IMG/VR virus record: IMGVR_UViG_3300012662_000008
Span: 102,529 to 166,528 of that record
Strand: one strand, 5' to 3'
Origin: a virus
Lineage: Duplodnaviria > Caudoviricetes
DNA: 64,000 nt
Below, piece after piece: positions 8,750-52,576 of this stretch. The position numbers and the translations under genes are program-made. The notes beneath the pieces were generated by a model that worked only from the letters and a program-made list of their open reading frames with translations, was not told the DNA's origin and ran no database searches. The number at the start of each line of letters is the position of its first letter. The first letter of the stretch is position 1.

Positions 8750-11174
8750 CTATACTTCTTTTATTTTGTCGTTATATGGGTTGCCGTCATATAATTGTGC
8801 AATCTCAGCTTGGGCTTGCGTTTCTTTTATTTCAGCAACTCGCATATCATAACTGTGTTTATCGGCAGCAATCTTTTTATCCAACTCAAGACGATCACGT
8901 TCAAGAGCAAGTTTTTCGTTATTTGATTTCTCAAGTTGTTTTTCCATTTGCTGCATCTGTTCCTGCATCTGTTTAATTTGCTTCTCGTACTCTTTAACAG
9001 TTTGCTCGGCTTGGGTAGCTTGCTGTTGTAATTGCTGCAATTGTCCAGTTTCTGCCTTTTGTTTTTCAAGTGCGTCTTTCACAACCATTTTCAGTTCTGT
9101 AAGATTTTTTGCTGCGCTCATATCAACAATAAGTTCTGCGTTTGCTAAGCCTGCTTTTATAAGTTCTGCACAATATGCTTTTAACGTCTCACGAGTCTGG
9201 AAAGCTTCTGTACTATCCTGGATGTGGATATCAAAATCTGTCATTGTGTAGTACTCAGGTAAAGCTGTGAAAATCTGGTTCAATCTGGTGCCGTTAATAA
9301 GCGTACCGGCAATTCCTTTTTTAAATACGATTTTTGCTAAATTAAGCAGATCATAATTAACTTCCTTGTACATCAAATCCATTGCAGAAAAATACTGCTT
9401 GGTAAGTAGTGTAGATTGCCTAATTCCAACCTTCACATTGCTCACTGCATCTCTCTGCTGGATTCCTCCTAACTTTTCAGCAAATACTCCGGTAATCGAA
9501 CTGGCTTGTTGTTCAATACTTTCAAGTACCATCTGAAAGGCTTGGATTGTTTGTGCTTTTATCGTGTCATCATAACCGTTAAAAGCAGTATTAATCATCT
9601 GTGAACCTTCCATTGAAGAGTCAATTCACGCAACGCCCTGCTTTTTATATGCAAGCCATTTCTGTACTCGCTCGGGCATTTCTTCGCCAAGAAATTCAGG
9701 TAAGTGCGCTGCATCAAGAAAATCTCCAACTGTTCCAGACGATGCTATAAGGCTATCCCTATAGTAGATTGTAAGATCATATCTCGTTTTTGTTCACGTA
9801 GCTTCGCTAAGACTACGCCGCTTTCGCTGCTGCATATTTCTATGCAGTCCAGACTATATCATAACATTTCTGTTTCCCGTGCTTCGGAACGCTTGCTCCT
9901 ACATAATAGTCGTTGAACCTTCCCAAAAGGGCTCGGCTGCTGGTTGTCTTCGTCTTTCTCGGTAAGAGTTTCCAGCAATTCTCGGGATTTACCCAGGACT
10001 AGATAAGTCAATCCTGCAAGTCCATGGTACTCAATAAGATAGAGAATGGGTCTCCATTCTTATCTGAAAAGAAAAGCCCATTTATACTAAGCGAGCAGTC
10101 ATTTGGATTTGAAATGCTCCTCGTAATGCTTTTTGATTCACCACGAACTATATATATTTCTGTACCTATTTTAACTCCTTCGTGTCGAGTAAGTCGTTCT
10201 TTTTCTTTATCATATTCGATTCACTCGCATTCATAAACTTCATATGTATTCTCTTTTGCAATCGCAGACGCTCCTCTATTTTCCCTAATTGGATGTGCTT
10301 CCATCCCTCCGAGGATTCCAGGAGTTGATGTCATTGCACTAAACGGAGCCATATCTGTTTTCACATAAACGAAGTTATCATTTCTAACTCCTTGATCTTG
10401 GTGTGTCTCTAGTTTTTCTTTTGCTTCTTTTGAGAGATCATCGCCAAACTCGTCTAGGATTCTTTCTGCAGTCATTCATCGTCTAACAACTGCACGAGGA
10501 GATTTGTTAAGGTAAAATTCGTTAAAATTTCGCTCTACAAAAGTGTCTAGTGGATTTAATATTTCCAGACTAATTGTGTCACCTTTTGGGCGTGTTCTAT
10601 AATAACACATTCCCCCAATTAACAAGTCTGTTAATAGATCCCGCATTTTGTTTTTTAAGTCAATATCACGAGAGTTTTTAATATAATTTAAAATATTTTG
10701 TGCTGCTATTTCATATTCAGAGACGTAACTTCTTTCAGCGTCTTTCTTTATTCGTTCCATTTCTTGCTCGAAAAGAGCGTCAACAACTGGTTCTTTTCCG
10801 TCTCCAAAAACTTGTAAGATAACGTTATTTAACTGTTGTTCAAAATGCTTGTAAGCAGCCTCGTGTATCTTTAATTGCTTGTCTCGCATAATATTCGAGA
10901 TTGTCTTGTCATCCTTGCAAGTAATCTGTAGATCCGGATCAAGCTCAAGATATTCACCAACCAACACATCTACGTGCTTTTTAATCAATGGAGTAAACCC
11001 AACCGATGTTGGAGTTCCAATTCCATAGTTGTCTTCGATGTGTCTAAACTGTTCTTCGTCTCTCGTGCAATGATAGTAATTGTAAGCTTTTCTCAACTGA
11101 ACTTTATCATAAACTAACTCGTTAATACACTTGTTAATTTTTTCAATTTCCTTTTCTTTATTCATTGCATTCAT
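8750..11174 (-). CDS. Portal protein (crAss-like), TGA=Trp, split by group I intron 9785..10010
   Basis: Track fragments 10476..11174 and 10221..10475 join via TGA; removing the intron fuses ...MDLQD|RYDLTIYYRD... in frame with 8750..9613; follows the terminase; coiled-coil C-terminus. Confidence 0.8.
9785..10010 (-). mobile_element. ORF-less group I intron (226 nt) in portal gene
   Basis: Minus strand has P AATTGCTGGAA, Q AACCAGCAG, R GTTCAACGACTA and S ATGATATAGTCTG; P1 CAGGAU/GUCCUG with U.G at the splice site; P10 UAUCU/AGAUA; terminal G; removal restores the frame. Confidence 0.9.
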
Positions 11175-36529: not shown

Positions 36530-36703
36530 AGGTTGTTTCAGCATTCTTATTTTTACTATTTTGCTATAAAATCATTAAAAAACAACCTGTATTTTTGGAA
36601 TAATTCAGCATTTTTTAGCTAAAATTCATGATTTCACACTTCCTTTTAACAGACTAGGGGAGGGTGTTTATTCCGTATTGCACATTCTCCCCTAGTCTTT
36701 TTT
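36530..36703 (+). promoter_or_regulatory. Attenuator-like leader: two stem-CAGCAUU motifs plus alternative terminator/antiterminator
   Basis: AGGTTGTTT-CAGCATT..AAACAACCT; GGAATAA-TTCAGCATT..TTATTCC; 17-bp terminator 36651-36698 plus T-run, ending 10 nt before ATG 36713. Confidence 0.6.
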
Positions 36704-36712
36704 CTTTTTATT

Positions 36713-38110
36713 ATGGATAACTTCATTTCAGCAATCAGCACCAAAAATGCTCACACAGCAAACGGTGCAATCACAAACAGTACAACACTCAACAAATGTC
36801 TAGATTTCTTTGCAATTGCAGGAAATCACCAAGATATGTTAGGCTCTTTTCTTTCCGCGTTTGGAGAAAATGAGCAATTAGCAATTCGGATCTTATTTTG
36901 GTCCCGTGATTGCCGAGGTGGTGCTGGTACAAAAAAGAATTTTCAGATTTGTCTTTCTTGGTTGCAAGAACATAGGCCTGAAATCTTTTCAAAAATCTTC
37001 AGATTAGTTCCGGAATATGGATATTGGAAAGATCTTTACAAACTTCAACCAACAGATGAACCTGTTCGTTATATAGCTAACACGCTTATTAACGAAGAAG
37101 ATCATTCACTTTGTGCAAAATATTGTCCTCGAAAGGGTTTGTGGTTTTTGAAACTGCGTCAATTCCTTGGATTTACTCCAACTGTTTTTAGGCATCATAT
37201 TGTGAATAGAACACAAGTTGTAGAACAATTAATGTGTGCTAGAAAATGGAGCAAGATTGAGTATAGTACCGTTCCTAGTGTGGCATCACGTATTTACTCT
37301 GGAACATTTGGGAGGCACGATCCTGCTCGTTATTCTGCTTATTTACAAGCAGTTAACAATGGCAAGCAAAAAATTAACGCATTGGTTCTCTTTCCAAGTG
37401 ATATATATGCAGATTATCGACATGGTACTTTAAAAGAAGATGCAGTTCGAGCACTTTGGAATAATATGCCAAACTTTATGGCTGGTTGCAAGGAGCGCAT
37501 TATGCCAATTTGTGATGTTTCTGGTAGTATGAAATGGGGAAACCCTGCACAGAAGGTACAACCAATCGATGTTTCAGTTGCTCTCGGAGTATATCTTGCA
37601 GAACACAATGAAGGCCCATTTCATAACTGTTTTATGACCTTCTCAGAAAAACCAGAAATAGTTACTCTTACCGGCAATGACATATTTGCAAAATTTGAAT
37701 ATATTAAAAACTATATACAGGGTTATAACACAGACTTGCAAGCAGTTTTTGATCTTATTCTTAGGCGAGTAATAGAATGTCATCTTTCTCAAGAAGATCT
37801 TCCTACTAAGTTATTGATACTTAGTGATATGGAGATTGATTGTGTTATGAATCAGGCAGATAAGACGAATTTTGAAGCAATCGAGGAGAAGTTTAAAAAT
37901 GCAGGCTATGAAAGGCCTGGGTTGATTTTTTGGAATATAGAAGGACGTGGCAATAATATGCCTGTTACTCTTGCTGATAAGAATTGCGCTCTTGTTTCTG
38001 GTTACTCGCCAGCAATTGTACAATCAGTTCTTGGTGGAGACGATCTTTCTCCTATGGCAGTTATGCTAAGAACAATAAATTCCGAGAGATATTCTCAGAT
38101 AATTCTGTAG
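36713..38110 (+). CDS. DUF2828-type TROVE/VWA-like protein (Ro60-related architecture)
   Basis: T-x-NGA, LFWSRDCRGGAG, EYGYWKDL, MIDAS CDVSGSM, NTDLQAVF, ILSDMEID, IFWN and LVSGYSP motifs. Confidence 0.85.
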   Translation: MDNFISAISTKNAHTANGAITNSTTLNKCLDFFAIAGNHQDMLGSFLSAFGENEQLAIRILFWSRDCRGGAGTKKNFQICLSWLQEHRPEIFSKIFRLVPEYGYWKDLYKLQPTDEPVRYIANTLINEEDHSLCAKYCPRKGLWFLKLRQFLGFTPTVFRHHIVNRTQVVEQLMCARKWSKIEYSTVPSVASRIYSGTFGRHDPARYSAYLQAVNNGKQKINALVLFPSDIYADYRHGTLKEDAVRALWNNMPNFMAGCKERIMPICDVSGSMKWGNPAQKVQPIDVSVALGVYLAEHNEGPFHNCFMTFSEKPEIVTLTGNDIFAKFEYIKNYIQGYNTDLQAVFDLILRRVIECHLSQEDLPTKLLILSDMEIDCVMNQADKTNFEAIEEKFKNAGYERPGLIFWNIEGRGNNMPVTLADKNCALVSGYSPAIVQSVLGGDDLSPMAVMLRTINSERYSQIIL

Positions 38111-38143
38111 AATTCACCCTCCCGGACATCTCTTTTATATAAA

Positions 38144-38260
38144 GTCCCACATAGCTCAGTAGTAGAGCACGTTATAAAATAGCCAGTTTTGGTTATTTCC
38201 GCATTATCTTTTAGACTGATAATCTCGGGGTCGTTGGTGCAATTCCAACTGTGGGACCCA
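38144..38260 (+). tRNA. tRNA-like RNA with GAT (Ile) anticodon and a 41-nt insertion (38172-38212) in the anticodon stem
   Basis: Acceptor TCCCACA/TGTGGGA plus C-CCA; removing the insert yields a perfect CGAGA-CTGATAA-TCTCG arm. Confidence 0.75.
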
Positions 38261-38290
38261 CTTTCATAATATTGTTTTAATTGTTTGTTT

Positions 38291-38328
38291 GGGTGGTGAA
38301 ATTCCGATTTCATCACCCTTTTTATTTT
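38291..38328 (+). terminator. Rho-independent terminator
   Basis: GGGTGGTGAAAT-TCCG-ATTTCATCACCC plus T-run. Confidence 0.75.
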
Positions 38329-38335
38329 TAAAATT

Positions 38336-41300
38336 ATGAATTACGATAATATCTCACAGGCATATAAGTTAGTACTTGCTATGTCTGATTCTGATGAAAA
38401 AGAAAACCTTCTCGATGTTCTTAATTATGCTGACGATTGTTATGTTGATCACTGTGAAGAACTTGGTCATATCGCAATTGAAGAGATAAAAGAATTTGAA
38501 AAAGACACAAAAGATGAATGTGTAGAAATTCTTGAAGATCTCCTTGATTCTTGTACTATTTTTGAACCAAAATCTATTTTAGAACAATTTAAAATAAAAG
38601 TTTATGGCAGCGATAGATAAGTGCTATGTAGATAGCTATGCTGATTACAAGACTTTTTGTGATTGGGCAAAAGATAGATCTTTTATAACTCCTAGAGGAG
38701 CAAAAGTAGTTATCTCTGATTATATCTTTAATTGGAAAGAAGAGGATTTTAAGGATGGTTGTGTACCAATTTTTAATTCTCCCGTGATATTCGACAATTA
38801 TCTTTATCACAATTGCAACCTATCTTTTATTAGAGAATGGCTTGCTAGCCGTTATACAAACAATCTTACAGGCGATCTTTATGACGAGATAACACAAGTA
38901 CCCACTCTTCCAGAGTTCGTGCCTTGTAGGCATGTTTCTGTGCTAAAAAATGGCATAGGAAATATGCCATATAAAAGTTATAACGACTACTCTCGAAGAA
39001 AATACGGATATTGGATCGTCGATATTTATCTAGGTAATAGTACTTGTTGGTATAACGAAGAATATGATTTTTGGACAATTCCGTTTGAGAACGACATTCA
39101 CACTGCTTCTTATGCGGCATTTAAAAATAAGTCCATAAAATCGATTATTAGACGAATTATTAAAAAATGGAAATTACCAGTTGGTTGTAAGATTGAAATA
39201 GAAGATCGAACAACAAAATGGGTTTTAATAACAAAATAATGAAAAAGTTTGATTTTAGTAGATTATTCGGATGGTTGAGTATGTTTTACTCGATTGTTGT
39301 AACAATTTGTGTGTTTTCATCATGGATGCCTGTTTGGGCCACGATTGCAATGTCGGGAACAGGCATTGTTCTTTTAATGCTTGATATTTATATTTATTTA
39401 TTTAAAAAAGAAAAATAATGAAACCATTTTCACTTGAAGAATATCTGAAAAATCCAGATAGGAAAATAGTAGATGATTTTGATAGATCAGTGCGTATAAT
39501 TGCAACTGACAGAAATAACAAGGATGGCAAACCAATTGTTGCGCTTGTTACATCTGACGGAAACGAAATAACTACATTATATACTAAGAATGGAAAATCT
39601 AGTAATAGTGATCAACAACGATTGTTTTTTGCTCCAGAAAAGCATGGTGTATGGATAGTTATATACAGATATCCTTGTGGCGCAATTGGAACAGCTGATT
39701 TTATAACATATCCGGAAGTGGAGCAATTCAAAAATAACCAGCCAAACATAAAAATATTAAAAGAAGAATATCTTGAATGGGAGGAATAGTTATGAATAAT
39801 CAGGAAATAAGAAATGAAATCAAGAATCTGAAAAGGATTTCAGACCTTGAAAAGCAACCGTTCTTACGCCCATTGGACCCGCTTATGCAAATCTAAAAAG
39901 TAAAATTATGGCATGGATAGCAAGAGATAGTGATGAAACTCTCGGAATATTTGGGGAAAAACCAACAAGGGACAATTTTGGCAGATGGAGAACTGACGCT
40001 TACATCGCCTTTAATGTGTATGACGATGATTTCGGAATAGCACTCCCTTCAGATGCCGATGAAAAACTCATCGGAAAGCATATCACTTGGGATGATGAAT
40101 CTGTAGAAATATAGAGCTATGATGACACAGTTAGAACAATCTTTCTATGAATCTGTAACAAAGTATTGTCGGGAGCACTCGACTGATTGTAATTACAACA
40201 AGCAGATTGATTGGGAGCAGCGCAGGTATGAAATTGCAAGGGACACCTTGGCTGCCCTTATTTCCAATCCGAACCACTGTGGAAAATCTTATGAAAGCGA
40301 GGCGAAACACGCAGTTGAATTTGCTGATGCCCTTATTGATGAATTAAAGAAATAGAGTTATGAAAGCAAGCGAGTTAATGTTGGGTGATTGGGTAGAATT
40401 TGAAACGCCAACAACGGAATTTCTTTATGGCAAGGTTATAGGAATTTCTGAACACTATGTAACAATCGGTACATTAAACGACAATGTCTGTGTAGAAATA
40501 GATAAAGTCGGGCAGATACCAATCACTTCAAACATTCTTAAAAAGAATGAATTTGAAAAGTACTTTGCGGGATATTATAAGAACCCTAAAGAGCTGCATA
40601 TTTCATGTGATGAGAATCAGGAGCATTGGTATATTAGCGACAGCCACGAGCAATATATTCACGGTGATTCTGTGGCTTCATTTTCCGCAGTTCATGAATT
40701 GCAGAATATTTTGAGGATTCTTGGATTTAACGATTTAGCAGACAATTTTAAGATATGAAAACAAAGGAACAGATTTTAGGATGGCTCGACAAGCAGCCGT
40801 GGAAAAATGAGTTTTACGAGAATAGCTTCAAACAAGGATTGAAGCACACCTCGTATGACGGAGATTTTATAATCACCGCATTTGACTATGAATTGACCGC
40901 ACAGGGAAACGAGGTTTGGGGCAGGCGTTCTGCTGAATATGCGAATTGGTACAACTCCAACGACAGACCGATGTCTTGGGAGGAATATCTTAAAAAGAGC
41001 CGTCCGATTCAAGACGCAAGCATCAAAATAAATGCATATATCGGCAATAACTCAGAATTTCTACAATGCGGAATGTCAAAAGAACTCTGTGAGGCTTTCA
41101 TTGCCTACATGAAGCTGATTCAGCTGCGGAATGCTTGGGTAAAAGACTGTAAAAGAATGCCTCTGCGCTTTAAAATCATGTCACAGGGCGGCAAGGTAAT
41201 GGTGAGTGATATGATACTTAATTCGTGCGGGTTGTCTTTTGAATACATGACCACGGCTGAGGAGTTTATCAATGTCTTCAAGGACCTCTTGGAAACCGCC

Positions 41301-42517: not shown

Positions 42518-42615
42518 GATTCCGTAGCTCAACGGTAGAGCAGCATGGCCTAAGTCAGGGCAGCCCCTGATGATGAAGTCTCAGCAAGTAGTTGGTTCGA
42601 CTCCAACCGGAATTA
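42518..42615 (+). ncRNA. tRNA-like RNA with a 26-nt insertion (42545-42570) in the anticodon stem and a non-canonical loop
   Basis: GATTCCG/CGGAATT acceptor; canonical D and T arms; insert removal gives GCTGA-TGAAGTC-TCAGC. Confidence 0.7.
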
Positions 42616-52416: not shown

Positions 52417-52488
52417 ACCCTCGTAGTTTAATGCTTAGAACTGGGGACTTCAAATCCTTAAGTGCCTGTTGGATTCGGGCCGAGGGTG
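52417..52488 (+). tRNA. Opal suppressor tRNA, anticodon TCA (presumed Trp)
   Basis: ACCCTCG/CGAGGGT acceptor with G73; GGGGA-CTTCAAA-TCCTT arm (anticodon 52450-52452); short variable loop, so not tRNA-Sec. Confidence 0.88.
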
Positions 52489-52576
52489 CCTAACTAATTG
52501 ATTATAAATATTTTACATTGAAAAATTCTATTCCCACTCGGCTGTGAAGTCCAGTGGGTTTTTATGTTTTTAGCTA

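Follow-up and report, generated by a model that had tools for sequence, protein, structure and literature searches.

The window analysed here is a 64,000-nt stretch of a Caudoviricetes phage genome (positions 102,529 to 166,528 of the IMG/VR record IMGVR_UViG_3300012662_000008), and the record to which it belongs is 166.5 kb long, about 95% complete and 36% G+C. Positions 38144-38260 of the window, on the plus strand, hold a tRNA-shaped RNA gene whose anticodon stem is interrupted by a 41-nt insert, and a gene for a 465-aa protein with DUF2828 and DUF7788 domains (36713..38110, +) ends 34 nt before it. Downstream of the RNA, a terminator-like hairpin of 12 bp followed by a T-run (38291..38328, +) would end a transcript carrying both the gene and the RNA. 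No terminator was seen at this locus between the DUF2828 gene and the RNA, and the strong one (38291-38318) follows the RNA, which suggests co-transcription; judging from this arrangement, the tRNA-shaped RNA is probably co-transcribed with the upstream gene, whose product is Ro60-like in its predicted fold. We propose that the two form a candidate Ro60-type system, in which the RNA would serve as a tRNA-mimicking partner of the protein.

The tRNA frame of this RNA can be read directly at 38145-38257 (+), where it is complete and, the insert aside, has all its helices closed. In agreement with this, the Rfam tRNA model (RF00005) matched 38145-38257 end to end with 38.7 bits (gathering threshold 29; E 1.3e-4 for the whole window), aligning model positions 1-71 and leaving 56 nt where a 15-nt anticodon-arm core is expected. 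ARAGORN made no call at 38144-38260, with introns allowed or not, because the insert does not lie at the canonical 37/38 position. The 5' tRNA part (38145..38171) comprises the acceptor strand TCCCACA (38145-38151), U8 and A9, the D arm (38154-38168; GCTC/GAGC with the loop AGTAGTA), A26, and C27-G28 (38170-38171). The insert (38172-38212) follows at position 28, and behind it lies the remainder of the anticodon arm (38213..38227), made up of AGA at positions 29-31, the loop CTGATAA with the anticodon GAT (38218-38220), and TCTCG at positions 39-43. The 3' tRNA part (38228..38260) consists of a 5-nt variable loop (GGGTC), the T arm GTTGG-TGCAATT-CCAAC, the acceptor 3' strand TGTGGGA (38250-38256), C73 (38257) and an encoded CCA (38258-38260). 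A G at position -1 (38144) can pair with C73, which would extend the acceptor stem to 8 bp. Removal of exactly 38172-38212 yields a perfect 5-7-5 anticodon arm with U33, A37 and the anticodon GAT, and the spliced sequence folds into a clean cloverleaf (-27.6 kcal/mol). In the full-length RNA, there is no contiguous 5-bp anticodon stem with a 7-nt loop, and the split stem has a pair probability of about 0 in the ensemble. The initial annotation of this stretch, made from the letters alone, had reported the GAT arm on deletion of 38172-38212, the G-1:C73 pair, the encoded CCA and the TGCAATT loop, and all of these features lie exactly where it placed them.

The loops of the D and T arms are unusual, in that the canonical elbow nucleotides (G18 G19; T54 Psi55 C56) are not present in AGTAGTA and TGCAATT; other members of the family described below have the canonical D-loop AGTGGTA and T-loop TTCGAAT. 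A contact between G18 and Psi55 is a normal feature of the tRNA elbow. Both of its partners are changed in the window RNA (38158-38164 and 38238-38244; G18 to A, U55 to G), and this double change is conserved in relatives whose DUF2828 protein is 78% identical.

Within the insert, four parts could be distinguished. An A/U-rich 5' joiner, TTATA (38172..38176), resembles the joiners of other family members and leads into a hairpin, AAATAGCCA-GTTT-TGGTTATTT (38177..38198), which has 9 bp, one G.U pair included, and appears in the minimum-free-energy (MFE) fold (z -4.45). The motif CCGCATT (38199..38205) follows without a gap, and a 3' joiner, ATCTTTT (38206..38212), closes the insert; joiner and motif together complement the anticodon region, a feature of this copy alone.

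Having described the RNA, we turn to the protein encoded beside it. The 36713-38110 product matched the Pfam families PF11443 (110 bits) and PF25043 (168 bits) and the PHROGs family phrog_850, 'RNA-binding protein' (E 2e-126), and DUF2828 relatives in the database number 2484 proteins at E<=1e-10. An AlphaFold2 (AF2) model built on a 51-sequence alignment reached a predicted local distance difference test score (pLDDT) of 82 and a predicted template-modelling score of 0.78, and the single-sequence AlphaFold model had a pLDDT of 37. The modelled architecture is a helical-repeat ring with a C-terminal vWA domain, whose MIDAS (an adhesion site dependent on metal ions) has the DxSxS residues D268, S270 and S272; the DxSxS signature is invariant in the family alignment. 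When the model was searched with Foldseek, ranks 1-13 were all Ro60/TROVE proteins (E down to 7e-8; template-modelling scores 0.46-0.59), with Thermus phage phiLo Ro60, Deinococcus Rsr, and Xenopus and human Ro60 among the top matches. Superposition on Ro60 with VIA-align gave Z 12.9-16.3 and a root-mean-square deviation of 4.3-5.6 A over 359-390 aligned residues, and vWA-only matches reached Z 10.8 at most. On the evidence of the model, the DUF2828/DUF7788 protein is Ro60-like in fold over its full length.

Relatives of this protein at 77-78% identity are encoded on the contigs L398-L402, which hold an orthologous RNA at the same place, next to the DUF2828 gene, with the same start 34 nt after the stop codon, and followed by a comparable GC-rich hairpin and T-run. 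The frame of the orthologous RNA is maintained: C6-G67 of the window RNA is replaced by U6-A67, a compensatory change, G-1 and C73 are kept, the D-loop is AGTAGTA in both, and the T-loop is TGCAAAT there versus TGCAATT in the window. The module is maintained likewise, with a hairpin of unrelated sequence, TATAACTA-GAT-TAGTTATA, that occupies the same place and is still paired, and with the motif CAGCATT (CCGCATT in the window), preceded by A in L398-L401 and by T in L402. The encoded 3' end is not conserved, being CAA or CAG in these contigs, and the anticodon loop is TTGGTAA (GGU, Thr) as against CTGATAA (GAU, Ile) in the window, with the 29:41 pair lost. A similar drift was found among Rak2-like orthologues that have the acceptor stem GGCGAGT in common, in which the anticodon is either UUU or GAU. 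The stable anticodon identity expected of a decoder is not found among the orthologues; since the anticodon changes and the rest is retained, it is the frame and the module that are conserved, and not the decoding identity.

Megablast of the region against deposited phages gave no match, and a weak BLAST match led to Vibrio phage 6E35.1a, in which a 'tRNA-OTHER' pseudogene has the same architecture, with an Asn-GUU anticodon and with C27-G28 followed by 38 inserted nt. When IMG/VR was scanned with patterns and deposited phages were searched with BLAST, the same design was found in Rak2-like jumbo phages and other Vibrio phages, carried by GAP32, CBB, Serratia BF, Yersinia fHe-Yen9-03/04, Erwinia pEa_SNUABM phages and Vibrio D479, where annotators had labelled the genes tRNA-Lys, tRNA-Phe, tRNA-Undet or tRNA-OTHER. 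The first pattern used (AGAGCACGT...CCGCATT) returned only chance matches beyond two known copies and was replaced by tighter and then by less biased patterns. Because the early patterns imposed 'CGT' after the D arm, two less biased IMG/VR scans were made, which required only the common D arm and GGTTC 60-90 nt downstream and which represent samples rather than a full census. Matches were kept if they had a closed 7-bp acceptor stem and a T arm, and each was then examined for the place at which a single deletion would restore a 5-7-5 arm in which position 33 is U and position 37 a purine. The module was defined as a hairpin of at least 5 bp with C[ACT]GCA lying 0-4 nt behind it, the whole being inserted in a tRNA frame after position 28 or 29.

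Among the matches listed, 36 of 75 distinct interrupted phage tRNAs carried the hairpin and C[ACT]GCA, and in nearly all of these 36 the insertion lies after position 28 or 29. The rule is loose, and a few of the 36 (L168, L189) look like false positives. The common layout is an A-rich joiner, a hairpin and a CAGCAA-like motif with the consensus CAGCAAT; the window copy conforms to it, with its 9-bp hairpin, 0-nt gap and CCGCATT after position 28, and the C variant of the motif, CCGCATT, is also found in the Vibrio phages 6E35.1a and D479. The anticodons of the module carriers are diverse (GCU, CCU, UCU, UGG, GAU, UUU, GUU, GAA, UCC, UUG and others), and about eight carriers among the matches listed have no canonical anticodon loop (L181, L215a, L294, L315, the L323 group and L327). 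Judged from these sequence comparisons, the locus is far beyond chance, because its orthologues and dozens of analogues in other phages share the insertion point. A comparison of homologs for a fixed insertion point as against random decay had been proposed in the initial annotation; when this check was run, the point proved to be fixed and the helices to covary.

Several other arrangements were encountered in the scans. A second insert class, represented by the IMG/VR loci L128, L130, L132, L276, L290, L292, L204, L236 and L328, occupies the same 28/29 site with inserts of 50-64 nt that end in GTTACTTC, GTTATC or GTTACC beside the 3' junction; it is without the CAGCAA motif, and a DUF2828 gene was found in 0 of the 8 contigs tested. 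In L124, L127 and L129/L131, the 5' part of a tRNA runs through GAGCACGT and then gives way to non-tRNA sequence or to another tRNA, and the L124 fragment retains a CCGCAA motif; these may be truncated, permuted or split forms. In L212 and L245, a tRNA with the anticodon TAT holds, behind its position 37, a nested sequence that is itself tRNA-like, and the Tyr-GTA tRNAs of L331, L365 and L385 have inserts of 36-59 nt, placed at the canonical 37/38 site. Extra sites with a hairpin and CAGCAA(C/T) lie in the tRNA arrays of 6E35.1a (record positions 162031, 162408 and 167956) and GAP32 (record positions 280062 and 306932), and may be additional small handle-bearing RNAs.

The constraint on the family at the RNA level was examined in an alignment of eight sequences (A2), in which the tRNA helices and the insert hairpin were tested for pairing. 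The results showed pairing in 93% of cells, compared with 75% in shuffled and 29-43% in slid-partner controls, and changes on both sides were found at 16 pairs, a number that 0 of 500 shuffles reached. The half-helices around the insert, namely 27-28:42-43 (2 bp) and 29-31:39-41 (3 bp), were 100% paired and showed compensatory changes such as that from C27-G43 to G27-C43 in pEa50. Among the matches listed, the 32 distinct hairpin sequences were all paired, with frequent G.U pairs; the presence of G.U pairs in many hairpins, that of the window included, indicates an RNA rather than a DNA structure. Pairing between the 5' joiner and the 3' tail was also considered and was inconsistent across members. 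These sequence patterns indicate that the locus is a conserved functional RNA gene.

The acceptor end of the window RNA deserves separate consideration, as G-1:C73 is a hallmark of bacterial tRNA-His. Within the module family, this pair occurs in 5 of 22 acceptor-stem lineages, which are the window lineage, the L351 group (GCU), L283 (GAU), L164 (UUG) and L384 (CAU). It was found in none of 1135 ordinary non-His tRNAs of the same loci and in 15 of 33 tRNA-His (p 1.5e-9). A question raised by these counts is why a quarter of the lineages pair the tRNA-His acceptor signature with non-His anticodons. A common His-type end, whatever the anticodon, is hard to square with faithful decoding and natural for a mimic; such an end would naturally suit a mimic with a common acceptor-end function. 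Of the 'mixed Ile/His identity' that had been ascribed to the window RNA, the His part has stood, with G-1:C73 conserved and recurring beside non-His anticodons, and the Ile part has not, the anticodon being GGU in the 78%-identity relatives.

We next consider how the module is distributed in relation to the DUF2828 protein. PF11443 was detected in 12 of 14 contigs with module-bearing (class-A) tRNAs, the two misses being contigs 32% and 49% complete, and in 0 of 12 contigs with other types of tRNA insert. With GAP32, Yen9-03, two Vibrio phages, the class-B genome G002 and the window genome added, the counts became 17 of 19 module-bearing genomes or contigs versus 0 of 13 with other tRNA inserts (Fisher 3e-7), and in complete or at least 90%-complete genomes only, 9 of 9 versus 0 of 5. 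The motif is also associated with the gene itself: over the 500 nt upstream of DUF2828 genes, [AT]CAGCA[AT] reaches about 10 times its density elsewhere (3.47 vs 0.34 per kb), and the DUF2828 loci of 12 of 15 distinct relatives have at least one leader motif. The usual leader form is 'open', with the 5' strand of a helix, the motif, about 40 nt, and then the 3' strand. Two such copies precede the gene in the window. Copy 1 (36530..36588, +) has AGGTTGTTT at 36530-36538, CAGCATT at 36539-36545, about 34 nt, and AAACAACCT at 36580-36588; copy 2 (36597..36674, +) has GGAATAATT at 36597-36605, CAGCATT at 36606-36612, and the pairing strand TTATTCC at 36668-36674. In L144 and L147, a tRNA-embedded copy of the module lies just upstream of the DUF2828 gene. 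Because the motif occurs both in the mRNA leader of the protein and in tRNA-shaped RNAs, a protein-binding site fits this distribution and a tRNA-specific intron signal does not.

The pairing strand of leader copy 2 sits within a long hairpin that, with the T-run behind it, stops about 10 nt short of the ATG, and from its sequence the leader as a whole (36530-36712) looks like an autoregulatory attenuator. In the window at large, the bare 7-mer is weakly enriched (46 observed versus 32 +/- 5.5 expected). A crude genome-wide count of hairpin plus motif, made for three genomes, did not exceed the count in shuffled sequence and was not used. Rfam 'freshwater-1' RNAs (RF02979, 73-74 bits) were found in tRNA arrays upstream of the DUF2828 genes of more distant relatives (L133:841-902, L134:1189-1250, L135:1068-1129, L139:1419-1480 and L148:1419-1480); they were considered as a form of the same element and set aside, having a different motif without CAGCAA.

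As the module is tied to genomes that encode a Ro60-shaped protein, a partner RNA is a likelier identity for the locus than a decayed tRNA. We favour, with a probability of roughly 55%, the reading that the RNA is an unspliced, Y-RNA-like tRNA mimic and that its 41-nt insert is a putative docking handle for the Ro60-like protein, a reading drawn from comparative sequence data and from analogy. According to this proposal, 38144-38260 would be transcribed with the Ro60-like gene, the transcript ending at the downstream terminator, and the RNA would stay unspliced. Its handle would consist of the A/U-rich joiner, the 9-bp hairpin, single-stranded CCGCAUU and the short tail, and would be set into the anticodon stem, on its 5' strand, of a tRNA that is otherwise complete and has an open acceptor end. 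The DUF2828/DUF7788 protein would dock on this handle, and the tRNA-like part would engage something that recognises tRNAs, making the RNA a phage counterpart of the bacterial YrlA Y RNAs. By analogy with Ro60, Y RNAs and PNPase, the particle may recruit or divert host RNA-processing or tRNA-targeting enzymes during infection.

A number of observations weigh against this proposal. The putative binding of protein to module is deduced from genomic association and fold analogy, and the likeness to Ro60 is at the level of the fold, with about 11-14% identity to solved Ro60s; TROVE (PF05731) had no Pfam match in the protein or the genome, and phmmer of the protein against the Protein Data Bank (PDB) sequences returned no match. 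Most members, including that of the window, keep a canonical, covarying anticodon arm once the insert is removed, which a pure handle would not obviously need and which would be expected of an intron. A ruler-type processing enzyme would also fit the 28/29 site, fixed as it is in very different tRNA bodies, and the second, unrelated insert class uses this same site in phages without DUF2828. The motif of the window copy is one position off the consensus (CCGCA versus CAGCA), and the naked-RNA model pairs it with the anticodon region, which could mean a different or regulated role. Finally, a second tRNA-Ile was not found in the genome at its completeness of about 95%; its ordinary tRNAs, as called by ARAGORN, are five (Gln, Leu-UAA, Met, Lys and a UCA suppressor type).

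The initial annotation had offered a choice between a mimic or decoy and an intron removed by an enzyme, and had missed the link of the module to the Ro60-like gene; of the two, the mimic is now the better supported, and the intron appears possible and, on the whole, doubtful. In its present form, the latter would be a protein-dependent intron, with an endonuclease cutting out the module, an RNA ligase rejoining the ends and the Ro60-like protein recognising or chaperoning the intron, and the product would be a tRNA with the anticodon GAU and a His-like G-1:C73 end. The perfect arm and cloverleaf obtained by exact deletion, and the covariation of both half-helices across the insert, are in its favour, but the same module is found outside tRNAs, in the DUF2828 mRNA leaders, and in tRNA-shaped RNAs that would lack an anticodon loop even with the module taken out. 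A 28/29 insertion point that is fixed in many tRNA bodies and shared by the second insert class also supports it, yet the junctions themselves have no conserved nucleotides and no bulge-helix-bulge. As to the enzymes, an Rnl2-family ligase-like open reading frame (ORF; 34 bits) is present, whereas a splicing endonuclease (PF01974) and RtcB, in searches whose controls responded, and likewise Rnl1 were not found in the ~95%-complete phage genome. That no other tRNA-Ile was found in this genome counts in favour of an intron; in Vibrio 6E35.1a, an intact tRNA-Asn(GUU), and in GAP32, an intact tRNA-Lys(UUU) and tRNA-Ile(GAU), make the module-bearing copies with the same anticodons redundant. Furthermore, the anticodon identity differs between close orthologues without changes in the acceptor, G-1:C73 beside anticodons for Ile, Ser, Gln, Met or Thr would lay the RNAs open to mischarging if they decoded, and no insert-free allele was seen among the orthologues. 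Precedent for short inserts exists in the 'enigmatic' phage tRNA introns of Devoto et al., reported without a mechanism, and the window insert pairs with the anticodon, as eukaryotic tRNA introns do. Two known intron types were considered and rejected. A group I intron needs about 200 nt or more, compared with the 41 nt available, and Intron_gpI gave no match at E<=10 in 38050-38400, whereas the same model, as a control, found a real group I intron in the window (9830-10046, minus strand; RF00028, 74.6 bits). A bulge-helix-bulge intron, defined by two 3-nt bulges separated by 4 bp, does not agree with the junctions 38171/38172 and 38212/38213, which lie in unpaired multiloop joiners in both the MFE and the cloverleaf folds; comparison with family members by eye showed no conservation of a bulge-helix-bulge, a hammerhead-like core or a T4 late promoter in the insert. 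A bolder extension of the intron reading, which we consider unlikely, is that bacterial viruses splice tRNAs by a pathway made of proteins only, in which the Ro60-like DUF2828 protein serves as the subunit that recognises the substrate. The protein would bind the hairpin and CAGCAA tag and hand the pre-tRNA over to a nuclease and an RNA ligase, so that functional tRNAs are set free, some of them having the unusual G-1:C73 end; if true, this would be the bacterial world's first tRNA splicing system to depend on proteins, and the Ro60 fold would gain a new function.

The complementarity between insert and anticodon region bears on another, improbable explanation, in which the RNA is a masked or switchable tRNA: the 3' part of the module would hold the anticodon arm inactive, and protein binding would release or remodel the arm, or have the opposite effect. 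The ensemble predicted for the window RNA is dominated by an alternative pairing, CCG.AUUAUC / GAUAAU..CGG, with probabilities of 0.88-1.0, the MFE is -38.0 kcal/mol as against -27.1 kcal/mol for the cloverleaf, and the motif variant C at 38200 lengthens the alternative pairing; the position of the pairing strand of leader copy 2 (36668-36674) within a long hairpin hints that handle formation competes with other structures there too. But this pairing is not conserved in L398 and L402, which have CAGCAUU and a different anticodon loop, and it is absent from the Rak2-like members checked by eye; being unconserved, it is maybe a chance complementarity in AU-rich sequence. A last reading takes the locus as a decaying tRNA pseudogene, a DNA-level scar or a mobile-element insertion without RNA function; several annotators have flagged equivalents as 'tRNA-OTHER', 'pseudo' or 'Undet'. 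The G in place of U55 in the T-loop and the D-loop without its usual GG might look like decay, but these two unusual loops are conserved together in relatives; tRNA 5' fragments followed by unrelated sequence do occur in other contigs (L124, L127, L129), but all helices are intact and covary in the family, and at 6:67 close relatives differ by a compensatory change. The sequence of the hairpin is replaced with its pairing kept, its G.U pairs would mismatch on the other strand, and the module is strictly associated with one protein family. This explanation is accordingly very improbable and effectively refuted by conservation, and the unspliced mimic remains the reading that we prefer.

Other features of the genome touch on tRNA biology. 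A second tRNA-shaped RNA lies at 42518-42615 (+) of the window, with closed acceptor, D and T arms in the MFE fold and a possible U-1:A73 pair; it scored below the Rfam gathering threshold and received no call. In this RNA, the hairpin TCAGGG-CAGC-CCCTGA and a CAGCAA motif replace the anticodon arm, and it is a probable second member of the module system. A tRNA with the anticodon UCA, which ARAGORN labels 'SeC', is encoded at 52417-52490 (+), and the Rnl2-like ORF (G000:C1:19503-20039) contains an in-frame TGA; these two observations agree with a use of TGA as a sense codon in part of the phage.

Among the described RNAs that come close to the inserts reported here are the 'enigmatic' short tRNA introns of huge phages, Lak megaphages included (Devoto et al. 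2018/2019; bioRxiv 10.1101/356790, PMC6784885). Both are short, conserved, non-group-I inserts in phage tRNAs with no known removal mechanism, and both give rise to oversized or 'pseudo' calls. As described, however, the Lak-type inserts lie in or near the anticodon loop according to eukaryote-mode tRNAscan, with no reported shared motif, 28/29 anticodon-stem site or link to a Ro60-like gene. Non-canonical archaeal tRNA introns can be short and can lie in the anticodon stem, like the window insert, but they have a bulge-helix-bulge, are cut by EndA and are joined by RtcB (PMC4090602); the window insert has no bulge-helix-bulge, EndA and RtcB were not found in the phage genome, and the host is bacterial. 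With viral tRNA-like structures and tRNA-His, the window RNA has in common a tRNA-like acceptor end on a putatively non-decoding RNA that could be recognised by tRNA enzymes, and it differs in having a full cloverleaf frame with non-His anticodons. Literature searches found no published description of the module, of DUF2828 or of phage anticodon-stem tRNA introns. The family described here accounts for 'pseudo', 'Undet' and 'OTHER' tRNA calls in GAP32, CBB, Serratia BF, fHe-Yen9, pEa_SNUABM and Vibrio phages, and the cultivable phages among its carriers offer test systems for a Ro60-type particle with a tRNA mimic during infection; if the tag were an intron instead, a new splicing pathway would be revealed.

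The system that the window locus most resembles is that of Ro60 and its YrlA RNAs. Ro60 and Y RNAs form a conserved particle of RNA surveillance that is little understood, not least as to what bacterial Y RNAs do with their tRNA-like part. In bacteria and phages, YrlA RNAs are encoded beside Ro60, have a tRNA-like domain and bind via a helix with GNCGAAN0-1G (PMC4201824), so that there is precedent in both for tRNA-mimicking Ro60 partners encoded beside the Ro60 gene (PMC4201824, PMC12135203); in YrlA-type systems, some of these RNAs are cut by RNase P and receive CCA (PMC4201824, PMC12135203). The Ro60 of Thermus phage phiLo binds two Y-like RNAs with a CGAA motif as well as host PNPase (PMC12135203; PDB 9KOP, 9L5Y), and phage Ro60-Yrl versions are thought to recruit host PNPase (PMC12135203). 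TROVE proteins 'with a tRNA-like partner' have also been mentioned for a few jumbo phages (PMC7824862). The likeness is that of a gene for a Ro60-fold ring protein beside a small RNA made of a helix-plus-motif and a tRNA-like domain, with binding putative here; the window RNA, like YrlA, lies beside a Ro60-type gene, here one whose product is Ro60-like in fold and not in sequence family, and has a tRNA-like domain. In contrast, the window protein belongs to DUF2828/DUF7788 and not to Pfam TROVE, and the window motif, C(A/C)GCA(A/U)U, stands after its helix, whereas GNCGAAN0-1G/CGAA of YrlA lies in a bulged 5'-3' stem. The topology differs as well. The ends of YrlA form the Ro-binding stem, and there is no anticodon arm; the ends of the window RNA form an acceptor stem, and its handle is a closed internal hairpin in the anticodon stem, combined with a full anticodon arm and an open acceptor end. 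The Rfam YrlA model (RF02553) gave no match at E<=10 in 38050-38400, nor any at gathering across the window. The window system would work like YrlA/Ro60 but is not a member of it by the defining tests of protein family, motif and topology. Overall, the modelled fold points to a second, sequence-unrelated family of Ro60-shaped proteins that is common in large phages, and the apparent partner RNAs of this DUF2828 family, as read from their sequences, are complete tRNA frames with a small, easily recognised tag.

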